The translations under genes were made by a program, and so were the position numbers. From Eledone cirrhosa (lineage: Eukaryota): DNA of 64,000 bases. Under the pieces are notes generated by a model. That model did no database searches. It was not told the DNA's origin and saw nothing but the letters and a program-made list of their open reading frames with translations. Positions 26,720 to 59,471 of this stretch are shown here, one piece after another (position 1 is the first letter of the stretch; the number at the start of each line of letters is the position of its first letter). The stretch covers positions 366,110,001 through 366,174,000 of the forward strand of contig OZ024743.1 of NCBI GenBank assembly GCA_964016885.1, written 5' to 3'.

Positions 26720-26764
26720 AGTCATAGTCCTTTCGTCACACACTCTGTGACCTCTTCAGTGACT
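26720..26764 (-). ncRNA. Minimal type I hammerhead ribozyme (family H3)
   Basis: Minus: AGUCA-CUGAAGA-g GUCACA gagug UGUGAC-GAAA-GGAC-UA/UGACU; 5-bp stem I, 6-bp stem II. Confidence 0.85.
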
Positions 26765-28262: not shown

Positions 28263-28735
<473 letters not shown>

Positions 28736-28841
28736 GTGAATATAGACATAGAATATTCGAAAATATTCTGTATGTTTATAATAAACATTTTGAAGACCTA
28801 ATCGCTATAGAATAGAATACGTCACGTATTACAATTAGATA

Positions 28842-28924
28842 CTCGATAAAAGCAAGGGAAGTAATCTACGCGTTTCATTCTCGTTAGAAATCATCAGGAC
28901 TACATATCCAGTGCTTTTATCGAG
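28842..28924 (-). ncRNA. Type I hammerhead ribozyme (family H4), unit 1
   Basis: Minus: CUCGAUAAAAGCA..GUAGUC-CUGAUGA-u UUCU aacg AGAA u-GAAA-CGCG-UA/GAUUAC..UGCUUUUAUCGAG; predicted cleavage between 28867 and 28866. Confidence 0.9.
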
Positions 28925-29151
28925 AATGACACAGCTAGAGACTTATAGAATACTTAGCTGTGTACAGGAACTGGTTTGAAAGAGCGGTTGCCGGTCCGGC
29001 AGAAATTAGAAATTGGAATAAATGCTCTGAAATAGCGATATATATGTGAATATAGACATAGAATATTCGAAAATATTCTGTATGTTTATAATAAACATTT
29101 TGAAGACCTAATCGCTATAGAATAGAATACGTCACGTATTACAATTAGATA

Positions 29152-29234
29152 CTCGATAAAAGCAAGGGAAGTAATCTACGCATTTCATTCTCGTTAGAAA
29201 TCATCAGGACTACATATCCAGTGCTTTTATCGAG
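29152..29234 (-). ncRNA. Hammerhead H4, unit 2 (stem III UGCG variant)
   Basis: As unit 1 but plus strand reads CTACGCATTTC. Confidence 0.85.
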
Positions 29235-29461
29235 AATGACACAGCTAGAGACTTATAGAATACTTAGCTGTGTACAGGAACTGGTTTGAAAGAGCGGTTG
29301 CCGGTCCGGCAGAAATTAGAAATTGGAATAAATGCTCTGAAATAGCGATATATATGTGAATATAGACATAGAATATTCGAAAATATTCTGTATGTTTATA
29401 ATAAACATTTTGAAGACCTAATCGCTATAGAATAGAATACGTCACGTATTACAATTAGATT

Positions 29462-29544
29462 CTCGATAAAAGCAAGGGAAGTAATCTACGCGTTTCATTC
29501 TCGTTAGAAATCATCAGGACTACATATCCAGTGCTTTTATCGAG
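29462..29544 (-). ncRNA. Hammerhead H4, unit 3
   Basis: As unit 1; the ATTCTCGAT variant lengthens the distal stem I. Confidence 0.9.
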
Positions 29545-29771
29545 AATGACACAGCTAGAGACTTATAGAATACTTAGCTGTGTACAGGAACTGGTTTGAA
29601 AGAGCGGTTGCCGGTCCGGCAGAAATTAGAAATTGGAATAAATGCTCTGAAATAGCGATATATATGTGAATATAGACATAGAATATTCGAAAATATTCTG
29701 TATGTTTATAATAAACATTTTGAAGACCTAATCGCTATAGAATAGAATACGTCACGTATTACAATTAGATT

Positions 29772-29854
29772 CTCGATAAAAGCAAGGGAAGTAATCTACG
29801 CGTTTCATTCTCGTTAGAAATCATCAGGACTACATATCCAGTGCTTTTATCGAG
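29772..29854 (-). ncRNA. Hammerhead H4, unit 4
   Basis: As unit 3. Confidence 0.9.
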
Positions 29855-30081
29855 AATGACACAGCTAGAGACTTATAGAATACTTAGATGTTTACAGGAA
29901 CTGGTTTGAAAGAGCGGTTGCCGGTCCGGCAGAAATTAGAAATTGGAATAAATGCTCTGAAATAGCGATATATATGTGAATATAGACATAGAATATTCGA
30001 AAATATTCTGTATGTTTATAATAAACATTTTGAAGACCTAATCGCTATAGAATAGAATACGTCACGTATTACAATTAGATA

Positions 30082-30164
30082 CTCGATAAAAGCAAGGGAA
30101 GTAATCTACGCGTTTCATTCTCGTTAGAAATCATCAGGACTACATATCCAGTGCTTTTATCGAG
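30082..30164 (-). ncRNA. Hammerhead H4, unit 5
   Basis: As unit 1. Confidence 0.9.
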
Positions 30165-30427
30165 AATGACACAGCTAGAGACTTATAGAATACTTAGCTG
30201 TGTACAGGAACTGGTTTGAAAGAGCGGTTGCCGGTCCGGCAGAAATTAGAAATTGGAATAAATGCTCTGAAATAGCGATATATATGTGAATATAGACATA
30301 GAATATTCGAAAATATTCTGTATGTTTATAATAAACATTTTGAAGACCTAATCGCTATAGAATAGAATACGTCACGTATTACAATTAGATATATATATGT
30401 ATATATATATATGTATATGTATATATG

Positions 30428-33475: not shown

Positions 33476-33621
33476 ATATGCATATGCTATAGGCGTTCTT
33501 TGTATTTATTATATCACGGCTCTGTCCTTAGACATCGAGCTAACCTTATACTGCCTGCTGGATAAGTGGAGTGTTATACACCCCTGATCCTCTCCCTAGT
33601 ATACTATATTATATATATATG

Positions 33622-33652
<31 letters not shown>

Positions 33653-33655
33653 GTA

Positions 33656-33686
<31 letters not shown>

Positions 33687-33697
33687 GTCTATATATG

Positions 33698-33728
<31 letters not shown>

Positions 33729-33844
33729 GTATATATATGAATATATATATGTATATATATATATATGTATATATATATTGTATATATATATGTATATATA
33801 TATATATGTATATATATATGTATATATATATGTATGTATATATG

Positions 33845-33897
<53 letters not shown>

Positions 33898-33914
33898 GTG
33901 TATATTATATATAT

Positions 33915-34142
<228 letters not shown>

Positions 34143-34290
34143 TGTATATATATATATGTGTATATATATATATATATGTATATATATATGTATATATATA
34201 TATATATGTATATATATATGTATATATATATGTATATATATGTATATATATATGTATATATATATGTATATATATATGTATATATATATG

Positions 34291-34321
<31 letters not shown>

Positions 34322-34411
34322 GTATATATATATGTATATATATAGTATATATATATATGTATATATGTATGTATATATATATGTATATATATATATATGT
34401 ATATATATATG

Positions 34412-34443
<32 letters not shown>

Positions 34444-34451
34444 TATATGTG

Positions 34452-34487
<36 letters not shown>

Positions 34488-34559
34488 TAATATATATATG
34501 TATATATATATTATATGTATATATATATGTATATATATATATATATGTATATATATATG

Positions 34560-34590
<31 letters not shown>

Positions 34591-34620
34591 GTATATATAT
34601 ATTATATGTATATATATATG

Positions 34621-34657
<37 letters not shown>

Positions 34658-34670
34658 GTATATATATATG

Positions 34671-34701
<31 letters not shown>

Positions 34702-34844
34702 GTATATATATGTATATATGTATATATATATGTATATATATATATGTATATATATATATAGATATATATATATATATGTATATATATATATGTATATATA
34801 TATATAGATATATATATATATATGTGTATATATAAATATATATG

Positions 34845-34953
<109 letters not shown>

Positions 34954-35104
34954 GTATATATATATATGTATGTATGTATGTAATATATATATATGTATGT
35001 ATGTATATATATGTATATATATGTGTATATATATGTATATATATGTGTATATATATGTATATATATATGTATATATATATGTATATATATGTATATATAT
35101 ATCG

Positions 35105-35135
<31 letters not shown>

Positions 35136-35164
35136 GTATATATATATATGTATATATATATATG

Positions 35165-35213
<49 letters not shown>

Positions 35214-35372
35214 GTATGTATATATATGTATATATATATATGTATATATATGTATATATATGTATGTATATATATGTATATATATATATGTTATTATATA
35301 TATGTGTATATATATGTATATATATATATGTATATATATGTATATATATGTATGTATATATATGTATATATG

Positions 35373-35421
<49 letters not shown>

Positions 35422-35538
35422 GTATATATATATATGTGTATATATATGTATATATATATATGTATATATATGTATATATATATATGTGTATATATATGTA
35501 TATATATATATGTATATATATATATGTATATATATATG

Positions 35539-35573
<35 letters not shown>

Positions 35574-35606
35574 GTATATATATGTATATATATATATATA
35601 TATATA

Positions 35607-35682
<76 letters not shown>

Positions 35683-35844
35683 GTATATATATGTATATAT
35701 ATATATATGTATATATGTATATATATATATATGTATATATATGTATATATATATATATGTATATATATGTATATATATATATATGTATATATGTATATAT
35801 ATATATATGTATATATATGTATATATATATATATGTATATATGT

Positions 35845-35949
<105 letters not shown>

Positions 35950-35970
35950 GTGTATATATATATATATGTG

Positions 35971-36048
<78 letters not shown>

Positions 36049-36078
36049 TATATATGTATATATATATATACATATATG

Positions 36079-36109
<31 letters not shown>

Positions 36110-36160
36110 GTATATATATATGTATATATATATGTATATATATATGTATATATATATGTA

Positions 36161-36191
<31 letters not shown>

Positions 36192-36200
36192 ATATATATG

Positions 36201-36254
<54 letters not shown>

Positions 36255-36311
36255 TGTAATATATATATATACATATATGTATATATATGTATATATATAT
36301 ATACATATATG

Positions 36312-36342
<31 letters not shown>

Positions 36343-36365
36343 GTATATATATATGTATATATATG

Positions 36366-36396
<31 letters not shown>

Positions 36397-36408
36397 GTAT
36401 ATATATTG

Positions 36409-36445
<37 letters not shown>

Positions 36446-36468
36446 GTATATATATATGTATATATATG

Positions 36469-36507
<39 letters not shown>

Positions 36508-36530
36508 GTATATATATATGTATATATATG

Positions 36531-36561
<31 letters not shown>

Positions 36562-36582
36562 GTATATATATGTATATATATG

Positions 36583-36635
<53 letters not shown>

Positions 36636-36636
36636 G

Positions 36637-36709
<73 letters not shown>

Positions 36710-36710
36710 G

Positions 36711-36741
<31 letters not shown>

Positions 36742-36755
36742 GTATAATATATATG

Positions 36756-36788
<33 letters not shown>

Positions 36789-36809
36789 GTATATATATAT
36801 ATATATATG

Positions 36810-37281
36810 TAACTTTGAATAACTTTGAAATGTTTTGGCAGTATTGGCCCAGGCCATGTCTAACTTAATAGCACACCCGGCGAAGTCTTTCAATTCAGAT
36901 TTGGGCACCATGGCCCATTCGAGAAGAGAATTACTGTTTGCGGAGACATATCCGGGTGTGGGTGGTTTGTCCGGGATTACTTGGAGGAATTTGTCCAAAG
37001 ACTTCTTGAATTTTGTGTGGTCAGTTTCTGTTTTGACGTGTCCTGGTGTGATGTTGAAGAGAGCAGGGCCGATTGAGGTGAAATAATTGTGCCGTATTGT
37101 TGTTATGAGTTGCGATTTAGATTTTTGAATGGGACGGATAGCACGGGGCCCAAGCCTTGGGTGTATCTTGAAGGCGATGCCAACATCATTTGGGCAGTGA
37201 TGATGGAACATTTTCCACATCATGCAGATAATATAACGCTCACGGCGACGTTGGAGTGAGTAAAGTTCAGGTTTTCCAATC
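36810..37281 (-). mobile_element. About 470-bp 3' fragment of the same CR1-group family
   Basis: Encodes the identical peptide [11 protein letters not shown]...WAMVPKS and has the same tail. Confidence 0.93.
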
Positions 37282-37882
37282 CATATATGTATTTTCCAAT
37301 ACATATATGTATATATATGTATATATATATATGTATATATATATATGTATATATATATGTATATATATATATGTATATATATGTATATATATATGTATAT
37401 ATATATGTATATATATATATGTATATATATGTATATATATATGTATATATATATATATATGTATATATATGTATATATGTATATATATATATATATGTAT
37501 ATATATGTATATATATATGTATATATATATATGTATATATATGTATATATATATGTATATATATATATGTATATATATGTATATATATATGTATATATAT
37601 ATATATATGTATATATATGTATATATATATGTATATATATATATATGTATATATATGTATATATATATGTATATATATATATATATGTATATATATGTAT
37701 ATATATAATGTATATATATATATATATGTATATATATGTATATATGTATATATATGTATATATATATGTATATATATATATATATGTATATATATGTATA
37801 TATATATGTATATATATATATGTATATATATATGTATATATATGTATATATATATGTATATATATATATGTATATATATATG

Positions 37883-37913
<31 letters not shown>

Positions 37914-38285
37914 GTATATATATATATATGTATATATATGTATATATATACTATATATATATGTATATATATGTATATATATATGTATATATATATATGT
38001 ATATATATATATATGTATATATATATGTATGTATATATATATGTATATATTTATATATGTATATATATATATATATGTGTATATATATATAATATATGTA
38101 TATATTTATGTATATATATATATATATGTGTATATATATATATATGTATATATATATGTATATATGTATATATATGTATATATATGTATATATGTATATA
38201 TATGTATATATATATATGTATATATATATTGTATGTATATATATGTATATATATATATATATGTATATATATAATATATATATTG

Positions 38286-38324
<39 letters not shown>

Positions 38325-38388
38325 TGTATATATATAAATGTATATATATATATGTATATATATGTGTATATATATATATGTATATATG

Positions 38389-38435
<47 letters not shown>

Positions 38436-38436
38436 G

Positions 38437-38483
<47 letters not shown>

Positions 38484-38725
38484 GTGTATATATATATATA
38501 TGTATATATATATATGTATATATATATATATGTATATATATATATGTATATATATATATATGTATATATATGTATATATATGTATATATATATATGTATT
38601 ATATGTATATATATATATATATGTATATATATATGTATATATATATATGTATATATATGTATATATATATATATATGTATATATATATGTATATATGTAT
38701 ATATATATATATGTATATATATATG

Positions 38726-38756
<31 letters not shown>

Positions 38757-38873
38757 GTATATATATATGTATATATATATATGTATATATATATGTATTA
38801 TATATATATGTATATATATATATATGTATATATATGTATATATATGTTATATATATATATATGTATATATATG

Positions 38874-38908
<35 letters not shown>

Positions 38909-38916
38909 TATATATG

Positions 38917-38994
<78 letters not shown>

Positions 38995-39038
38995 TATGTA
39001 TATGTATATATATATTATAATATATATGTATATATATG

Positions 39039-39069
<31 letters not shown>

Positions 39070-39080
39070 GTATATATATG

Positions 39081-39113
<33 letters not shown>

Positions 39114-39123
39114 GTATATAATG

Positions 39124-39156
<33 letters not shown>

Positions 39157-39190
39157 GTATATATATGTATATATATATATATATATGTAT

Positions 39191-39228
<38 letters not shown>

Positions 39229-39263
39229 GTATATATATATATATATGTATATGTATATATATG

Positions 39264-39298
<35 letters not shown>

Positions 39299-39309
39299 GT
39301 ATATATATG

Positions 39310-39340
<31 letters not shown>

Positions 39341-39347
39341 GTATATA

Positions 39348-39388
<41 letters not shown>

Positions 39389-39407
39389 ATATATATATAT
39401 ATATGTG

Positions 39408-39463
<56 letters not shown>

Positions 39464-39543
39464 GTATATATATGTATATATATATATTATATATATATAT
39501 ATATGAATATATATGTATATATATATATATATATATATGAATA

Positions 39544-39576
<33 letters not shown>

Positions 39577-39667
39577 GAATATATATGTATATTATATATA
39601 TTATATATATATCAATATATATGTATATATGTATATATTATATATATATGAATATATTGTATATATG

Positions 39668-39705
<38 letters not shown>

Positions 39706-39708
39706 TGA

Positions 39709-39745
<37 letters not shown>

Positions 39746-40009
39746 TATGAATATATATATATAATTATGTATATATATATATATATTGAATATATATATA
39801 TATATATGTATATATATTGTATATATATATGATATATAATATATATTATGTATATATATATGAATATATATGTATATTATATATATATATATATATATAT
39901 ATGTTATATATGTATATATGTATATATATATATGTATATATGTATATATATATGTATATATATATATGTATATGTATATATGTATATATATATGTATATA
40001 TATATATAA

Positions 40010-40076
<67 letters not shown>

Positions 40077-40077
40077 G

Positions 40078-40113
<36 letters not shown>

Positions 40114-40156
40114 ATATATATGTATATATATTATATGTATATATTATATATATATA

Positions 40157-40299
<143 letters not shown>

Positions 40300-40300
40300 G

Positions 40301-40363
<63 letters not shown>

Positions 40364-40399
40364 GTATAATATGTATATATATATATATATATATATGTG

Positions 40400-40454
<55 letters not shown>

Positions 40455-40527
40455 GTATATATATATATGTATATATATGTATATATGTATGTATATATAT
40501 GTATATATATATATATATATATATGTG

Positions 40528-40560
<33 letters not shown>

Positions 40561-40599
40561 GTATATATATGTGTATGTATATATATGTATATATATGTG

Positions 40600-40630
<31 letters not shown>

Positions 40631-40667
40631 GTATATATATATGTATATATATATGTATATATATGTG

Positions 40668-40698
<31 letters not shown>

Positions 40699-40899
40699 GT
40701 ATATATATATGTATATATATATGTATATATATGTATATATATGTATATATATATGTATATATATGTGTATGTATATATATGTATATATATGTGTATATAT
40801 ATGTATATATATGTATATATATATGTATATATATATATGTGTATGTATATATATGTGTATATATATGTATATATATGTATATATATGTATATATATATG

Positions 40900-40930
<31 letters not shown>

Positions 40931-40938
40931 GTAATATG

Positions 40939-40969
<31 letters not shown>

Positions 40970-41033
40970 GTATATATATATGTATATATATTGTATATAT
41001 ATATATATAGTATATTATATATATATATGTATA

Positions 41034-41092
<59 letters not shown>

Positions 41093-41126
41093 GTATATAT
41101 ATATATTATGTATATGTATATATATG

Positions 41127-41157
<31 letters not shown>

Positions 41158-41257
41158 GTATATATATGTATATATATATATATATATGTATATATATGTA
41201 TATATATAATATATATATGTATATATATGTATATATATATATGTATATATATGTATA

Positions 41258-41376
<119 letters not shown>

Positions 41377-41446
41377 TATGTATGTATATATATGTATATA
41401 TATGTATATATATTATATATATATATAATTATATATATGATATATG

Positions 41447-41482
<36 letters not shown>

Positions 41483-41988
41483 TATGAATATATATATATT
41501 ATATATGTATATATATTATATATATATATATGAATATATATATATATGTATTATATTATATATTATATGAATATATATATATATATGTATATATATGTAT
41601 ATATATATGAATATATATATATATATATGTATATATATATGAATATATATGTATATTATATGTATATATATATGAATATATATATATATATATGTATATA
41701 TATATGAATATATATGTATATATATGTATATATATGTATATATATATGAATATATATATATATATGTATATATATGAATATATATGTATATATATATGTA
41801 TAATATATATGAATATATATATATATATATATGTATATATGATATATATATGTATATTATATATATATATATGTATATATGTATATATATATGTATATAT
41901 ATATATGTATATATATATATGTATATATAATAGTATATATATGTATATATATATATATATATTAAGTATATATAGTATAATATATATG

Positions 41989-42059
<71 letters not shown>

Positions 42060-42060
42060 G

Positions 42061-42141
<81 letters not shown>

Positions 42142-42143
42142 TA

Positions 42144-42176
<33 letters not shown>

Positions 42177-42179
42177 TAG

Positions 42180-42210
<31 letters not shown>

Positions 42211-42217
42211 GTATATA

Positions 42218-42311
<94 letters not shown>

Positions 42312-42358
42312 TGTATAATATATAGTATATATATTATATATATATATATATATATGTG

Positions 42359-42393
<35 letters not shown>

Positions 42394-42428
42394 GTATATA
42401 TATATGTGTATAGTATATATATGTATAT

Positions 42429-42462
<34 letters not shown>

Positions 42463-42646
42463 ATGTATATATATATGTATATATATATGTATATATATGT
42501 ATATATATGTATTATATATATGTATATATATGTGTATCTATATATATTGTTATATATATGTGTATATATATGTATATATATGTATATATATGTATATATA
42601 TATATATGTGTATGTATATATATATGTGTATATATATGTAATATAT

Positions 42647-42846
42647 NNNNNNNNNNNNNNNNNNNNNNNNNNNNNNNNNNNNNNNNNNNNNNNNNNNNNN
42701 NNNNNNNNNNNNNNNNNNNNNNNNNNNNNNNNNNNNNNNNNNNNNNNNNNNNNNNNNNNNNNNNNNNNNNNNNNNNNNNNNNNNNNNNNNNNNNNNNNNN
42801 NNNNNNNNNNNNNNNNNNNNNNNNNNNNNNNNNNNNNNNNNNNNNN
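42647..42846. other. Assembly gap (200 N)
   Basis: Run of N; the round size suggests a scaffolding placeholder. Confidence 0.99.
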
Positions 42847-43000
42847 ATATATATTATGTGTGTATATATATATATGTGTATATATATATTATATGTGTAT
42901 ATATATATATATATATGTGTGTATATATATATATGTGTATATATATATGTGTGTTATATAGTATATATGTGTATATATATATATATATATGTGTATATAT

Positions 43001-43059
<59 letters not shown>

Positions 43060-43097
43060 GTGTATATATATATATGTATATATATATATATTATGTG

Positions 43098-43131
<34 letters not shown>

Positions 43132-43223
43132 TGTGTATATATATATATGTATAAATATATATATATATGTGTATATATATATATATATATGTGTATATAT
43201 ATGTGTATATATATATATATATA

Positions 43224-43255
<32 letters not shown>

Positions 43256-44084
43256 GTGTATATATATATATATGTGTATATATATATATATATATGTGTG
43301 TGTTGTATATATATATATGTGTATATATATATATATATGTGTATATATATATATATGTGTATATATATATATGTGTATATATATATGTGTATATATATAT
43401 ATATGTGTGTATATATATATATATATGTGTATATATATATATATGTGTATATATGTGTATATATATATATATATATATGTGTATATATATGTATATATAT
43501 ATGTGTACATATATGTGTATATATATGTATATATATATGTGTACATATATGTATATATATATGTGTGTATATATATATATGTGTGTATATATATATATAT
43601 ATGTGTATATATATATGTATATGTGTATATGTGTATATATATATGTGTATATGTGTATATATATATATGTGTATCTATATATATATATGTGTATATGTAT
43701 ATATATATATGTATATATATATATTATATATGTGTATATGTATATATGTATATATATATGTATATATATATATATGTGTATATGTATATATATATGTATA
43801 TATATATGTGTATATGTATATATATATGTATATATATATATATATGTATATATATATGTATATATATATATATATATATGTGTGTATATATATGTATATA
43901 TATATATATATGTGTGTATATATATGTATATATATATATATATGTGTATATGTGTGTATATATATGTATATATATATATGTGTATATATATATGTGTATA
44001 TATATGTATATATATATATATATGTGTATATATATATGTGTATATCTATGTATATATATATATATATATATGTGTATATATATG

Positions 44085-44121
<37 letters not shown>

Positions 44122-44124
44122 GTG

Positions 44125-44159
<35 letters not shown>

Positions 44160-44273
44160 GTGTATATATATATATATGTATATATATATATGTGTATATA
44201 TATATACATATATGTATATATATATATGTGTATATATATATGTATAATATATATATGTGTATATATATATGTG

Positions 44274-44308
<35 letters not shown>

Positions 44309-44368
44309 GTGTATATATATATACATATATGTATATATATATATGTGTATATATATATGTATATATAT

Positions 44369-44408
<40 letters not shown>

Positions 44409-44483
44409 GTGTATATATGTATATATATATATGTGTATATATATATGTATATATATATATGTGTATATATATATGTATATATA

Positions 44484-44528
<45 letters not shown>

Positions 44529-44843
44529 GTGTATATATATATATATGTGTGTATATAATATATATATGTGCGTATATATATGTATGTGTGTATATATGTA
44601 TGTGTATCTATATATGTATATATATATGTGTATATATACTTGTATATGTATATATGTGTATATATATATATGTGTATATATACTTGTATATGTGTATATG
44701 TATATGTATATATGTGTATATATATATGTGTATATATATATATGTATATGTATATAAGTATATGTATATATGTGTTATATATATATATATGTACATATAT
44801 GTATATATCTATGTATGTATATCTATGTATGTGTATATATATG

Positions 44844-44874
<31 letters not shown>

Positions 44875-45154
44875 GTATATAAGTATATGTATATATGTGT
44901 ATATATATATATATGTACATATATGTATATATCTATGTATGTATATCTATGTATGTGTATATATACTGTATGTGTATATATATGTATGTATATATCTATG
45001 TATGTATGTATATATATATATGTACATATATGTATATATCTATGTATGTATATCTATGTATGTGTATATATATGTATGTGTATATATATGTATGTATATA
45101 TCTATGTATGTATGTATATATGTATGTGTATATATATGTATGTATATATCTATG

Positions 45155-45186
<32 letters not shown>

Positions 45187-45380
45187 TGTATGTATGTATA
45201 TGTATGTATATGTATGTGTATGTATGTATATGTCTGTATATATATATATGTCTGTATATGTATGTATATGTCTGTATATATATATATAGGTCTGTATATA
45301 TATATATGTCTGTATATGTATGTATATATATATATATGTATGTATGTATGCTATATGTATGTATATATATATATATGTAT

Positions 45381-45554
45381 GCTAGGGAAAGGATCAGGGG
45401 TGTATAACACTCCACTTATCCAGCAGGCAGTATGTAGGACAGAGCCGTAATATAATAAATAAATAACAAAGAACGCTTATAGCATATGCATATCTTTACT
45501 TGCTAACATTGTTTCATCCGCACTATAAGTGGGACTCATCAGAGCATAAAGGTT
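45381..45554 (-). mobile_element. 174-bp pLTR fragment of the H5 family
   Basis: Reverse complement of 33415-33600 with a ~20-bp internal deletion; TA tracts on both sides. Confidence 0.88.
45494..45551 (-). ncRNA. Hammerhead H5, third copy
   Basis: Identical to 30976-31033. Confidence 0.85.
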
Positions 45555-46418
45555 ATATATATATATGTATTGTATGTATATATATGTATGTATGTATATG
45601 TATGTATATATATATATATGTATGTATATATATATATGTCATGTATATATATATATGTATGTATGTATGTATAATGTATATATATGTATGTATATGTATG
45701 TATGTATATGTATATATATATATGTATGTATGTATGTATATATATATATATGTGTATATTATATATATATGTGTATATATATATGTGTATGTATATATAT
45801 GTGTATGTATATATATGTGTATGTATATATATGTGTATGTATATATATGTGTATGTATATATATGTGTATGTATATATATGTGTATGTATTATATATGTT
45901 CATGTATATATATATATGTGTATGTTTATATATGTGTATGTATATATATGTGTATGTATATATATGTGTATGTATATATGTGTGTGTATATATATATGTG
46001 TGTGTATGTATATATATGTGTGTATTATATATATGTGTGTATATATATATATGTGTGTATATATATATATATGTGTGTATATATATATGTGTATATATAT
46101 ATGTGTATATATATATATTATGTGTGTGTAATATATATATATGTGTGTATATATATATATGTGTGTATATATATATATGTGTGTATATATATATATATAT
46201 GTGTATATATATATATATATATATGTGTGTGTATATATATATGTGTGTGTATATATATATGTGTGTGTATATATATATATATATATGTGTATATATATAT
46301 ATGTGTATATACATGTGTATATACATATACGTGTATATACATATATGTGTATATATATATGTGTGTGTATATATATATTTGTATGTATATTTATGTATAT
46401 ATACATATATATATATAT
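45555..46418. repeat. (TA)n/(TG)n compound tract
   Basis: Directly visible. Confidence 0.95.
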
Positions 46419-47355
46419 GAATGAAAAATGGCGAGCTTGGTTGTTGCAAAAAGGATATATATAATAAATGAAGAATTAGAAATATCCGTCATCAGTGGTC
46501 TAGTAGCCATCATAGGTATTTCTCGCATTACAGACCATATACCCCCGGCTAGGGCGATACAATAACTAAATTAAGTTATTGGGATAAAAAGAGTTGGGTG
46601 GAGAAAGAGAGACAGGTAAATAAACACCAATGGTGAGGCAACGTAAAGAGAGGAAAAAATGAGAAAATCAAGTCAATAATCCATTTTGAACATAAGACCT
46701 TGCGACTATTGACGAGAAGGCAAAGACACATCTTGGCCGTGCGGATGTGAGCGAGGAAAGAATCTCGTACGGTGTGGGACGATGGAGGAAGTGAGAGAGA
46801 GGGTGAGTAGCAGAGAGTGAGTGAGTGAAAGTGTGAGGAAGAGGCTAGCCGAGAGAGGGTGACTAGCAGAGGGGGTGAGTGAAAGTAAGAGGGAGAAGGA
46901 GAGGGAAAGAGGATAGCAGTAAGGAAAGAGAAAAGAACAGGTCACAGCGAAGGGGAAAGCATATATGAATGAAAAATGGCGAGCTGTGTTGTTGCAAAAA
47001 GGATATATATAATAAATATAGAATTAGAAATAGAAGCCAGGAATATCCGTCATCAGTGGTCTACTAGCCATCGTAGGTATTTCTCGCATTACAGACCATA
47101 TACCTCCGGCTAGGGCGATTATTGACTTGATTTTCTCATTTTTTCCTCTCTTTACTTTGCCTCACCATTGGGGTTTGTTTACCTGTCTCTCTTTCTCCAC
47201 CCAACTCTTTTTAGCCCAATAACTTAATTTAGTTATTGTATCGCCCTAGCCGGGGGTATATGGTCTGTAATGCGAAGAAATACCTATGATGGCTAGTAGA
47301 CCACTGATGACGGATATTCCTGGCTTCTATTTCTAATTCTTCATTTATTATATAT
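46419..47355 (-). mobile_element. Non-coding element: 548-bp unit + partial second unit + inverted arm (47117-47355)
   Basis: GAAAAATGGCGAGC at 46423 and 46971; 47117-47355 is the reverse complement of about 46457-46681; GAT microhomology at the inversion junction. Strand inferred from architecture. Confidence 0.75.
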
Positions 47356-47366
47356 ATATATATATA

Positions 47367-47739
47367 CGAGGGTAATCCCAAAAGTAAGGTCTCCAAAGCG
47401 ATGGGGACGCAGAGAAACTGTTCGCACGGCTGTTGGCAACGCTGTTGTGATTGGTGCTTCCTTTACTCCCAAACAATGCGCGCGCTTCGCTGGGATGCTC
47501 AATCTTGGCTTGGTAGCCGTTGAGAATGGAGCTCCCGTTGAACGCTACCGCCAAGTGCGAATTTCGCGCAGTTATTAAATAGAGGGCAATCCCAAAAGTA
47601 AGGTCTCCTTCCGAGGAAAACATGCGTAAAGATCGGCGGATCACTCTGGATGCTCTCTACATTTTGGTTCCTGAGGTTTCCCGAAGCACCATCCACAGGA
47701 TTTTATCGGAAGGGGACCTTATTTTTGGGATAGCCCTCG
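47367..47739 (+). mobile_element. Internally deleted mariner-family element (MITE)
   Basis: 28-bp imperfect TIRs CGAGGGTAATCCCAAAAGTAAGGTCTCC / GGGGACCTTATTTTTGGGATAGCCCTCG flanked by TA; transposase remnants EFRAVIK and DRRITLDAL...SRSTIHRILSE. Confidence 0.85.
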
Positions 47740-47829
47740 TACATACATATTTATATATATATATATACATACATGCGGTGCCCCAGCATGGCTTCAGCCG
47801 GATGGCTAAAACATGTAAAAGAGTATACA

Positions 47830-54425: not shown

Positions 54426-57400
54426 TCTGGGAGTATATATAAAGTATGTGTATGTAAGGCAGTATATATAAAGTATGTGTATGTATGGCAGTATATATAA
54501 AGTATGTGTATGTAAGGCAGTATATATAAAGTATGTGTATGTATGGCAGTATATATAAAGTATGTGTATGTATGGCAGTATATATAAAGTATGTGTATGT
54601 ATGGCAGTATATATAAAGTATGTGTATGTATGGCAGTATATATAAAGTATGTATATGTCTGGGAGTATATATAAAGTATGTGTATGTAAGGCAGTATATA
54701 TAAAGTATGTGTATGTAAGGCAGTATATATAAAGTATGTGTATGTATGGCAGTATATATAAAGTATGTGTATGTAAGGCAGTATATATAAAGTATGTGTA
54801 TGTATGGCAGTATATATAAAGTATGTATATGTCTGGGAGTATATATAAAGTATGTGTATGTAAGGCAGTATATATAAAGTATGTGTATGTAAGGCAGTAT
54901 ATATAAAGTATGTGTATGTATGGCAGTATATATAAAGTATGTGTATGTAAGGCAGTATATATAAAGTATGTGTATGTATGGCAGTATATATAAAGTATGT
55001 GTATGTAAGGCAGTATATATAAAGTATGTGTATGTATGGCAGTATATATAAAGTATGTGTATGTAAGGCAGTATATATAAAGTATGTGTATGTATGGCAG
55101 TATATATAAAGTATGTATATGTCTGGGAGTATATATAAAGTATGTGTATGTAAGGCAGTATATATAAAGTATGTGTATGTATGGCAGTATATATAAAGTA
55201 TGTGTATGTAAGGCAGTATATATAAAGTATGTGTATGTATGCCAGTATATATAAAGTATGTGTATGTAAGGCAGTATATATAAAGTATGTGTATGTATGG
55301 CAGTATATATAAAGTATGTATATGTATGGCAGTATATATAAAGTATGTGTATGTAAGGCAGTATATATAAAGTATATGTATGGCAGTATATATAAAGTAT
55401 GTGTATGTAAGGCAGTATATATAAAATATGTATATGTATGGCAGTATATATAAAGTATGTGTATGTATGGCAGTATATATAAAGTATGTGTATGTAAGGC
55501 AGTATATATAAAATATGTATATGTAAGGCAGTATATATAAAATATGTATATGTATGGCAATATATATAAAGTATGTGTATGTAAGGCAGTATATATAAAG
55601 TATGTGTATGTAAGGCAGTATATATAAAGTATGTGTATGTATGGCAGTATATATAAAGTATGTGTATGTAAGGCAGTATATATAAAGTATGTGTATGTAT
55701 GGCAGTATATATAAAGTATGTGTATGTAAGGCAGTATATATAAAGTATGTGTATGTATGGCAGTATATATAAAGTATGTATATGTATGGCAGTATATATA
55801 AAGTATGTGTATGTAAGGCAGTATATATAAAGTATGTGTATGTAAGGCAGTATATATAAAATATGTATATGTAAGGCAGTATATATAAAATATGTATATG
55901 TATGGCAGTATATATAAAGTATGTGTATGTATGGCAGTATATATAAAGTATGTGTATGTATGGCAGTATATATAAAGTATGTGTATGTATGGCAGTATAT
56001 ATAAAGTATGTGTATGTATGGCAGTATATATAAAGTATGTGTATGTATGGCAGTATATATAAAGTATGTGTATGTATGGCAGTATATATAAAGTATGTGT
56101 ATGTAAGGCAGTATATATAAAATATGTATATGTATGGCAGTATATATGAAGTATGTGTATGTAAGGCAGTATATATAAAGTATGTGTATGTATGGCAGTA
56201 TATATAAAGTATGTGTATGTATGGCAGTATATATAAAGTATGTGTATGTATGGCAGTATATATAAAGTATGTGTATGTATGGCAGTATATATAAAGTATG
56301 TGTATGTATGGCAGTATATATAAAGTATGTGTATGTAAGGCAGTATATATAAAGTATGTGTATGTATGGCAGTATATATAAAGTATGTGTATGTATGGCA
56401 GTATATATAAAGTATGTATATGTCTGGGAGTATATATAAAGTATGTGTATGTAAGGCAGTATATATAAAGTATGTGTATGTAAGGCAGTATATATAAAGT
56501 ATGTGTATGTAAGGCAGTATATATAAAGTATGTGTATGTATGGCAGTATATATAAAGTATGTGTATCTATGGCAGTATATATAAAGTATGTGTATGTAAG
56601 GCAGTATATATAAAGTATGTGTATGTATGGCAGTATATATAAAGTATGTGTATGTAAGGCAGTATATATAAAGTATGTGTATGTATGGCAGTATATATAA
56701 AGTATGTATATGTCTGGGAGTATATATAAAGTATGTGTATGTAAGGCAGTATATATAAAGTATGTGTATGTATGGCAGTATATATAAAGTATGTGTATGT
56801 ATGGCAGTATATATAAAGTATGTGTATGTAAGGCAGTATATATAAAGTATGTGTATGTATGGCAGTATATATAAAGTATGTGTATGTAAGGCAGTATATA
56901 TAAAGTATGTGTATGTATGGCAGTATATATAAAGTATGTATATGTATGGCAGTATATATAAAGTATGTGTATGTAAGGCAGTATATATAAAGTATGTGTA
57001 TGTATGGCAGTATATATAAAGTATGTGTATGTAAGGCAGTATATATAAAATATGTATATGTATGGCAGTATATATAAAGTATGTGTATGTATGGCAGTAT
57101 ATATAAAGTATGTGTATGTAAGGCAGTATATATAAAATATGTATATGTAAGGCAGTATATATAAAATATGTATATGTATGGCAGTATATATAAAGTATGT
57201 GTATGTAAGGCAGTATATATAAAGTATGTGTATGTAAGGCAGTATATATAAAGTATGTGTATGTATGGCAGTATATATAAAGTATGTGTATGTAAGGCAG
57301 TATATATAAAGTATGTGTATGTATGGCAGTATATATAAAGTATGTGTATGTAAGGCAGTATATATAAAGTATGTATATGTATGGCAGTATATATAAAGTA

Positions 57401-59100
57401 TGTGTATGTAAGGCAGTATATATAAAATATGTGTATGTAAGGCAGTATATATAAAATATGTATATGTAAGGCAGTATATATAAAATATGTATATGTATGG
57501 CAGTATATATAAAGTATGTGTATGTATGGCAGTATATATAAAGTATGTGTATGTATGGCAGTATATATAAAGTATGTGTATGTATGGCAGTATATATAAA
57601 GTATGTGTATGTATGGCAGTATATATAAAGTATGTGTATGTATGGCAGTATATATAAAGTATGTGTGTGTATGGCAGTATATATAAAGTATGTGTATGTA
57701 TGGCAGTATATATAAAGTATGTGTATGTATGGCAGTATATATAAAGTATGTGTATGTATGGCAGTATATATAAAGTATGTGTATGTAAGGCAGTATATAT
57801 AAAGTATGTGTATGTATGGCAGTATATATAAAATATGTATATGTATGGCAGTATATATAAAATATGTATATGTATGGCAGTATATATAAAGTATGTGTAT
57901 GTATGGCAGTATATATAAAGTATGTGTATGTAAGGCAGTATATATAAAGTATGTGTATGTATGGCAGTATATATAAAGTATGTGTATGTAAGGCAGTATA
58001 TATAAAGTATGTGTATGTAAGGCAGTATATATAAAGTATGTGTATGTAAGGCAGTATATATAAAGTATGTGTATGTAAGGCAGTATATATAAAGTATGTG
58101 TATGTATGGCAGTATATATAAAATATGTATATGTATGGCAGTATATATAAAGTATGTATATGTATGGGAGTATATATAAAGTATGTATGGGAGTATATAT
58201 AAAGTATGTGTATGTATGGCAGTATATATAAAGTATGTGTATGTAAGGCAGTATATATAAAATATGTATATGTATGGGAGTATATATAAAGTATGTGTAT
58301 GTAAGGCAGTATATATAAAGTATGTGTATGTAAGGCAGTATATATAAAGTATGTGTATGTATGGCAGTATATATAAAGTATGTGTATGTAAGGCAGTATA
58401 TATAAAATATGTATATGTATGGCAGTATATATAAAGTATGTATATGTATGGGAGTATATATAAAGTATGTATGGGAGTATATATAAAGTATGTATGGGAG
58501 TATATATAAAGTATGTGTATGTATGGGAGTATATATAAAGTATGTGTATGTATGGCAGTATATATAAAATATGTATATGTATGGGAGTATATATAAAATA
58601 TGTATATGTATGGGAGTATATATAAAGTATGTGTATGTATGGCAGTATATATAAAGTATGTGTATGTATGGCAGTATATATAAAGTATGTATATGTATGG
58701 GAGTATATATAAAGTATGTGTATGTATGGCAGTATATATAAAGTATGTGTATGTATGGCAGTATATATAAAGTATGTATATGTATGGCAGTATATATAAA
58801 GTATCTATATGTATGGCAGTATATATAAAGTATGTGTATGTATGGCAGTATATATAAAGTATGTATATGTATGGCAGTATATATAAAGTATGTGTATGTA
58901 TGGCAGTATATATAAAGTATGTGTATGTATGGCAGTATATATAAAGTATGTGTATGTATGGCAGTATATATAAAGTATGTGTATGTATGGCAGTATATAT
59001 AAAGTATGTGTATGTATGGCAGTATATATAAAGTATGTGTATGTATGGGAGTATTTATAAAGTATGTATATGTATGGGAGTATATATAAAGTATGTGTAT
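54426..59100. repeat. 29-bp satellite GGCAGTATATATAAAGTATGTGTATGTA(T/A), about 160 copies
   Basis: GGC at 54458, 54487, 54516 gives period 29. Confidence 0.97.
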
Positions 59101-59471
59101 GTATATATGTGAGTACGTTTGTGTATATAATGTATGTGTATGTGCTTACATGTGTGTAGCGTATATGTGCGTGCGTACATATATGCATTTAATCTATATG
59201 TCCGTGCATGCGCATGGTTCTGTGTGTGTGTATTTGTGTATGGACGTATTTATGTATGTGCGTGTGGGCGCACGTATGTAAGTATGTATATGTGTGACAG
59301 GCAGATAGATATAAAGCAGATATGCCAAACTGAATAGCTGGAATTATTTGAACAATATTTTATAATTACCGAATGTATTTTAAAATATGTTAAGTTTAAT
59401 TGAGAGGCCAACCGAAAATTCTACAAATTGTCCAAATACCATTTATTATTCACTATTTTAAACAACAGTAA

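Follow-up and report, generated by a model that had tools for sequence, protein, structure and literature searches.

The hammerhead ribozyme was divided by Eckert et al. (2023; PMC10085705) into three blocks, S, G and C, which can be joined in six permutations, each block being assumed uninterruptible. Type SGC cleaves in vitro and is represented by 583 sequences from metatranscriptomes, and type CSG is known from only two sequences. In the available portions of that paper, octopus and metazoa are not mentioned in the supplement, and the strings octopus, cephalopod and mollus do not occur in the text; the term "type-SGC" was found only there in a literature search with subscription journals outside its scope. 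For Penelope-like elements (PLEs), the available sections of Craig et al. (2021; PMC8557442) give partial tandems, inversions, a one-sided tail and (TA)n targets as traits of Naiads and other PLEs, describe Naiads as having no canonical hammerhead but only a "core" or "half core," treat cephalopod Naiads as old remnants, and read the missing hammerheads as pointing to a dispensable or parasitic ribozyme. The non-LTR retrozymes of Li et al. (bioRxiv 10.64898/2026.07.22.740005) are non-coding, tandem, hammerhead-bearing elements proposed to be non-autonomous PLE derivatives; in the accessible part of that preprint, Naiad is named only as a clade, and SGC or permuted hammerheads go unmentioned. 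No split-core hammerhead and no permuted hammerheads in Naiads were found in the literature searched, subscription journals again being outside the scope.

Here, we report a repeat family of Eledone cirrhosa that has three motif copies in a 64,000-nucleotide stretch of contig OZ024743.1 (hereafter the window). Taken as a whole and judged from the modeled fold, the repeat is likely a non-autonomous Naiad-type PLE whose RNA would fold to a hammerhead core, with a predicted self-cut after position 47260. Like type SGC (HRIMA-1 and the SGC variant, in the part of Eckert et al. available), it has the S-G-C order, all core bases and a linker of 3-4 nt between stems I and II, and its helix I' has the strand partners of Eckert's helix "I", again set off by a one-base spacer. 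The difference lies in block C, which in the Eckert RNAs described in that part is continuous (CUGAUGA, an optional U, stem II) with the chain ends outside it, whereas in the present repeat the 5' end holds the stem II 5' strand and the I' partner, and A9/10.1, the step with a bulged U in Eckert's RNAs, is the insertion point of two further helices, T and H. The fixed letters of the Eckert SGC descriptor (stem II after CUGAUGA(U), CGAAA) are present in 10 of 166 motifs of the family and in none of those in the window. Unlike types I-III, the S-G-C order is not a circular permutation of C-G-S; type CSG, as presented in the same part of that paper, is the same strand circle opened at another point, with its block C intact and without T or H. 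The preliminary description had proposed a new strand order, which does not stand, since Eckert et al. had already described type SGC and validated it in 2023 (PMC10085705); what appears to be new, and was not seen then, is the leader-made stem II, the four-way core junction and the link to Naiads.

By eye, the window element has the RNA layout seen at the 3' ends of published Naiad consensi (on the coding strand in the octopus record; PMC8557442, as far as available) and, unlike Naiads, has no ORF. It resembles the non-LTR retrozymes, as described in the accessible part of the preprint, in being non-coding, tandem, hammerhead-bearing and a proposed non-autonomous PLE derivative, and differs from them in its units of 550-800 nt, mostly in 1-2 copies per site.

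Layout of the insertion

The part of the window under study is a single insertion of a non-coding repeat with three hammerhead-motif copies, composed as follows.

33600..46418, no strand: (TA)n-type microsatellite, about 12.8 kb, left target of the insertion
46411..46968, minus strand: full family A unit, non-coding, 558 nt, with its 3' end into (TA)n
46961..47119, minus strand: partial tandem copy upstream, 5'-truncated (unit 411-556), in a pseudo-LTR arrangement
47117..47357, plus strand: inverted 5'-truncated copy (unit 288-514), joined head to head, with its 3' end in a TA run
47349..47366, no strand: TA run, right target of the insertion

The full unit (46411..46968, minus strand) includes a 44-nt tail that is present at one end only, and the predicted cut lies 127 nt from the 3' end of the unit, where a distance of about 120 nt had been estimated for the motif. 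The tandem copies are spaced by 548 when measured at the unit ends and by 561 when measured at the motif, a difference due to 13 nt missing from copy 3. Exactly three S-G-C matches came from a descriptor scan of the entire window; the sequence and positions of the motif copies given in the preliminary description hold, as do its reading of a hammerhead core in non-circular order and its tandem plus inverted-arm, Penelope-type structure. When the 558-nt unit was shuffled 3,000 times with its dinucleotides preserved, no SGC match arose. Rfam (gathering threshold and E<=10) gave no hammerhead match in the window or the element, and a repeat finder run on 14 kb was dominated by TA repeats. In a public DNA sequencing run, both reads and contigs cover the motif and bear out the family as well as the A/C variation at H17; the motif is therefore not an assembly artefact.

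Directly to the right of the insertion lies a short element with terminal inverted repeats (47365-47740), which we take to be mariner-like. Elsewhere in the window, a canonical type I hammerhead core is found in three copies of a single repeat family, at 45542 (minus), 31024 (minus) and 33427 (plus), the last two facing each other as inverted arms. A PLE ORF remnant with a GIY-YIG-like end (27813-26968, minus; weak tblastn match, E 5e-6, no Pfam match) is followed by a type I hammerhead core at 26759 (minus). The window also holds a broken LINE with endonuclease and RT domains (13196-16101, plus), presumably RTE-like, a 310-nt tandem repeat between TA runs (28728-30391; 5.4 copies, 99% alike), and a 29-nt minisatellite (54428-59104; 162 copies).

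The predicted fold and its genome-wide family

A six-helix fold, deduced by comparing sequences, is very probably conserved in this family. From 5' to 3', the chain would run through T, H, the stem II 5' strand, I', III, the cut and I, then through a 3-4 nt linker, the stem II 3' strand, GAAA, III, I', I, CUGANGA and T; all six helices are mutually compatible. Wired in this way, the RNA would be a circular permutation of Eckert's type SGC whose opening lies within block C, between A9 and stem II, with a four-way junction (closed by T and H) in place of the A9-to-stem II bond, helix T being presumably stacked on H and stem II on the core. The parts assigned to the three copies are listed below.

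47213..47315, plus strand: ribozyme copy 1, all six helices
47213..47216, plus strand: helix T 5' strand, pairing with the tail at 47312-47315
47217..47238, plus strand: hairpin H, 7-8 bp
47241..47244, plus strand: leader, forming the stem II 5' strand (4 bp with 47272-47275)
47246..47251, plus strand: helix I' 5' strand (equivalent of Eckert's helix "I"), pairing with 47291-47296
47255..47267, plus strand: block S, with the stem III 3' strand (47255-47259), U16.1 (47259), H17 (A47260) and the stem I 3' strand (47261-47267)
47260/47261, plus strand: predicted cut of copy 1
47272..47284, plus strand: block G, with the stem II 3' strand (47272-47275), A47276, GAAA (47277-47280) and the stem III 5' strand (47280-47284)
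47291..47310, plus strand: helix I' 3' strand (47291-47296), stem I 5' strand (47297-47303) and CUGAUGA (47304-47310)
47311..47315, plus strand: spacer C47311, then the helix T 3' strand (47312-47315)
47045..47119, minus strand: ribozyme copy 2, U16.1 at 47100, predicted cut 47099/47098
46483..46586, minus strand: ribozyme copy 3, U16.1 at 46539, predicted cut 46538/46537

Copy 1 has one mismatch in helix T, and its position 11.1 (A47276) has no standard partner. Copy 2 retains the leader, I', III, I and the core and is broken off 5' of the leader, without H and the T 5' strand. Copy 3 is the most complete, with six helices, a 5-bp T, stem II flush with GAAA, and one mismatch ending I'. Hairpin H (47217-47238) and helix T were absent from the preliminary description, whose cut after 47260 agrees with the position predicted here. 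The G-U to Watson-Crick changes that it pointed out in copy 2 do extend stem III in that copy, but the extension is not kept in other subfamilies.

The 116-nt motif gave 2,034 first-look candidates in the 3.0-Gb genome. Three exact patterns matched 672, 8,458 and 714 times, against 5, 6 and 2 times in reversed controls; the three sets share some places, and 8,458 is a lower bound on pattern matches. These counts, with the shuffles of the unit, contradict the coincidence for which the preliminary description had allowed. A looser pattern (74 matches versus 23 in the control) opened the way to older families, and a relaxed descriptor applied to 262 loci yielded 166 distinct motifs in 29 clusters. 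The layout is kept in at least 23 sequence clusters with differing stems. Core elements CUGANGA, GAAA and UH are present, the invariance of the first two being partly built in, as they served as search terms; A15.1-U16.1 is invariant. At H17, the 166 motifs have A (86), C (77) or U (3) and never G, which the descriptor permits, and G is likewise found in none of 23 medoids; at N7, they have U (117), C (31) or A (18). Within the ranges permitted by the descriptor, the linker from H17 to GAAA is 15-16 nt in 160/166 motifs, and that from GAAA to CUGA is 23-24 nt in 156/166. When 30 loci of family B1 were picked by their tail alone, 17 had the whole core, the others being truncated or point-changed.

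Seven near-identical family D insertions (L401-L407; G000:C3:89.39-90.27 Mb) lie about 140-160 kb apart, a spacing that points to a large segmental tandem array. Both unit A and unit D have the 10-nt word CGCTGTGACC at their 5' start, and the word is also found inside the hairpin/leader of family F (L219).

In the family comparison, the bases before GAAA pair with the 5' leader and not with the bases after CUGANGA, the pairing letters being UCGC/GCGA in families A-C and GGCGC/GCGCC in family D. Swap tests were run on 23 of the 29 cluster medoids, six truncated or deleted singletons being left out, and bear on helices (leader stem II, I', H and T) that lie outside the criteria by which motifs were selected. 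Leader stem II reached -4.40 kcal/mol versus -2.99 kcal/mol for cross-family swaps, and helix I' reached -5.70 versus -3.20 kcal/mol (0/5,000 permutations in each case); for hairpin H, 0/200 shuffles were as good. The preliminary description had formed stem II from 2 bp (CG/CG) with the tail; this gives way to the 4-bp leader helix, the tail-made classical stem II being no better than swaps (3,354/5,000). Two further candidates were rejected: an Eckert-type I' made with the 3' tail was also no better than swaps (1,345/5,000), and an HDV-like topology does not fit the helix order. Helix T in its fixed register had 3.05 pairs versus 2.08 (0/10,000; 20 of the 23 medoids) and was not significant in a loose 18-nt window, where composition dominates; it is the weakest helix, with 78.6% paired in a 22-row alignment.

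That alignment comprised 22 copies of families A, B, C and E and older singletons, with family D excluded. The six-helix model paired 88.3% of cells versus 73.9% when shuffled, a control that leans in the model's favor, the structure having been drawn from the same, related sequences. Two-sided changes were found in 27/34 pairs, which 0/500 shuffles reached, and every helix has some (T, 3/4; H, 5/7; II, 4/5; I', 5/6; III, 4/5; I, 6/7), so that the pairing of stems I and III noted earlier is joined by covariation; in slid registers, pairing falls to 27-52%. The nested part (T, H, I' and III) was the minimum-energy fold in both family B copies tried, and single-strand folding z-scores (-1.57 to +0.56) are uninformative for a doubly pseudoknotted RNA.

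Carrier element and relation to Naiads

Copies of the repeat are 5'-truncated; their 3' ends fall at position 514 or 558 of the unit, in (TA)n. Partial tandems account for 103 family A junctions, and head-to-head inversions for 22 inverted junctions in 66 loci, some of which overlap. Partial tandem pseudo-LTRs, inverted truncated copies, a one-sided tail and a (TA)n target, all Penelope-like structural traits, are thus found together. The carrier is likely a non-autonomous Naiad-type PLE, and its mobility is probably Naiad driven: a Naiad RT/GIY-YIG protein would copy the unit RNA in trans into (TA)n.

Published Naiad consensi were compared by eye; 12 of 54 were reached by word searches in the accessible records, which amounts to neither a scan nor a frequency. 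Nine of these have the leader-type layout at their 3' end: two octopus records, three near-identical Acropora records, and four others, one of the latter with a stem I of only 2 bp. The leader supplies G10.1 in 9/9, and T and H are readable in most. Three nematode consensi read as intact type CSG. By eye, the hairpin loop and two linkers of the octopus Naiad records, in the portions available, recur in families A and B; the exact octopus-Naiad hairpin motif has no match in the genome.

As the unit is non-coding, with no ORF in the window element, it lacks the Naiad frame of GIY-YIG (N-terminal) and RT (C-terminal). No Naiad ORF with EN before RT was found beside any motif in the genome using Neptune/Hydra-like queries, which decayed Naiads could escape, and a Neptune-like RT protein search gave none recognizable as Naiad among the 120 of 593 matches listed. 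Candidates for an autonomous partner were rejected: 30 GIY-YIG loci and 20 further PLE-ORF loci do not have the motif as their own terminal repeat, and the motif matches at L179, L188 and L190 and the ORF pieces in L133/L134, L156, L162 and L206 look like neighbors or nested insertions. At L133/L134, two motif copies of a family B tandem lie 2.9 kb apart; between them, on the opposite strand, is a decayed RT/GIY-YIG piece that looks like a nested insertion or capture. Neptune-like PLEs with RT and GIY-YIG frames of 844-1096 aa between stops (L173:1988-4519, L174:5622-2809 and L175:1275-4562) are probably young; a type I descriptor found no hammerhead in these three loci.

We consider it fairly probable that the motif represents a natural topology outside the six block permutations, in which the chain enters and leaves the core by a four-way junction, and that it is a clade-wide Naiad ribozyme, from corals to octopuses, with nematodes using the CSG opening. 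If so, the view that Naiads have no hammerheads would be overturned, and permuted layouts at Naiad 3' ends would explain the "missing" ones. Non-circular hammerheads, with thousands of copies here, would be common in animal genomes and not just rare environmental RNAs. A split core would break the uninterrupted-block-C assumption of the six-permutation scheme and would offer, at the A9/10.1 junction, a naturally occurring point at which helices could be grafted onto a hammerhead core. A conserved ribozyme that had been rewired would also argue that self-cleavage matters for Penelope-type retrotransposition.

Predicted cleavage and alternative readings

Judged from the model, intact members of the family quite probably form an active ribozyme, and the window's own copies have a somewhat better than even chance of cutting. 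Self-cleavage, possibly with re-ligation, would release RNA of unit length from transcripts that read through or are tandem. Were the template's 5' end set by cleavage, partial copies lying upstream would be expected to end at the cut. Of the 103 family A junctions, 90 were examined; 69 of these 90 upstream copies start at or 3' of the cut, and 6/23 at-risk starts lie within 4 nt of it, one being a spurious alignment; the cut site in this family is TATA, which can join TA targets by microhomology and confounds the 5'-end excess. Family D, which is free of the TA confound, has 57 junctions, of which 47 were left after five near-duplicates and five unalignable ones were dropped; 1/21 at-risk 5' ends lies at the cut, and 20/47 copies run through it. 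The 5'-end test gives no support for cutting, and its outcome is compatible with templates that are circular or partly cleaved, or with weak activity.

It is also conceivable, though unlikely, that the hammerhead-derived fold is real but kept as a signal for the retrotransposase (template recognition or priming), with cutting poor or absent. The missing pile-up of family D 5' ends at the cut and the many copies that read through it agree with this, as does the mispaired 10.1-11.1 position of the window's subfamily; read-through is, however, expected from circular or slowly cleaved templates too, and the avoidance of G at an H17 that alternates between A and C, the free N7 and the invariant U16.1-A15.1 form the pattern that catalysis demands.

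Position 10.1-11.1 is the weak point of the window's subfamily. Perreault et al. (2011; PMC3088659), in the part available, rejected matches mispaired at 10.1-11.1 and had core insertions of only one or two bases. Most family A copies have A at 11.1, opposite a leader A or a tail C; in the minus-strand copies of the window, a U-A pair closes stem II because one A is missing. A 4-bp leader helix is present in 143 motifs; a partner for 11.1 is available in the leader in 39 of them, at the first tail base in 85, and in at least one of the two in 110. The junction may therefore shift by one base between families, the single 10.1-11.1 pair perhaps coming from the first tail base in some subfamilies. 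In family D, 10.1-11.1 is G-C, supplied by the leader.

The tail pairing at 11.1 in 85 of the 143 motifs, as opposed to 39 for the leader, would suit an ordinary type SGC with a very short tail-made stem II, the leader, H and T pairings being inactive regulatory alternatives. The bulged U at the same step in Eckert's SGC, in the part of that paper available, and the old copy L202, which can form a 3-bp classical stem II, are in keeping with such an RNA. We regard it as very unlikely: a tail-made stem II performs no better than swaps, the six helices are compatible with each other, and in family F and the coral and other Naiad records (Naiads by eye, in the records available) the first tail bases are unable to pair 11.1, whereas the leader gives 5-6 bp from G10.1-C11.1.

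Instead of forming within one chain, the helices might join two copies of a tandem or inverted transcript into a strand-swapped dimer. Tandem copies are common, as the family A junctions attest, and the single-chain fold requires two pseudoknots; a precedent exists in Penelope hammerheads that cleave as dimers, reportedly described by Lunse and colleagues in 2017. The tightly kept linker lengths fit a compact single-chain fold instead, and the available part of Eckert et al. (PMC10085705) measured SGC kinetics in cis, which leaves a dimer highly improbable next to the single-chain fold that we favor. A chance motif in one repeat, passively amplified, has a negligible probability and is refuted by the compensatory changes: copies within a subfamily are not independent, but the motif recurs in clusters with differing stems, no shuffle of the unit matches it, and the same layout is found by eye in the Naiads of other phyla.
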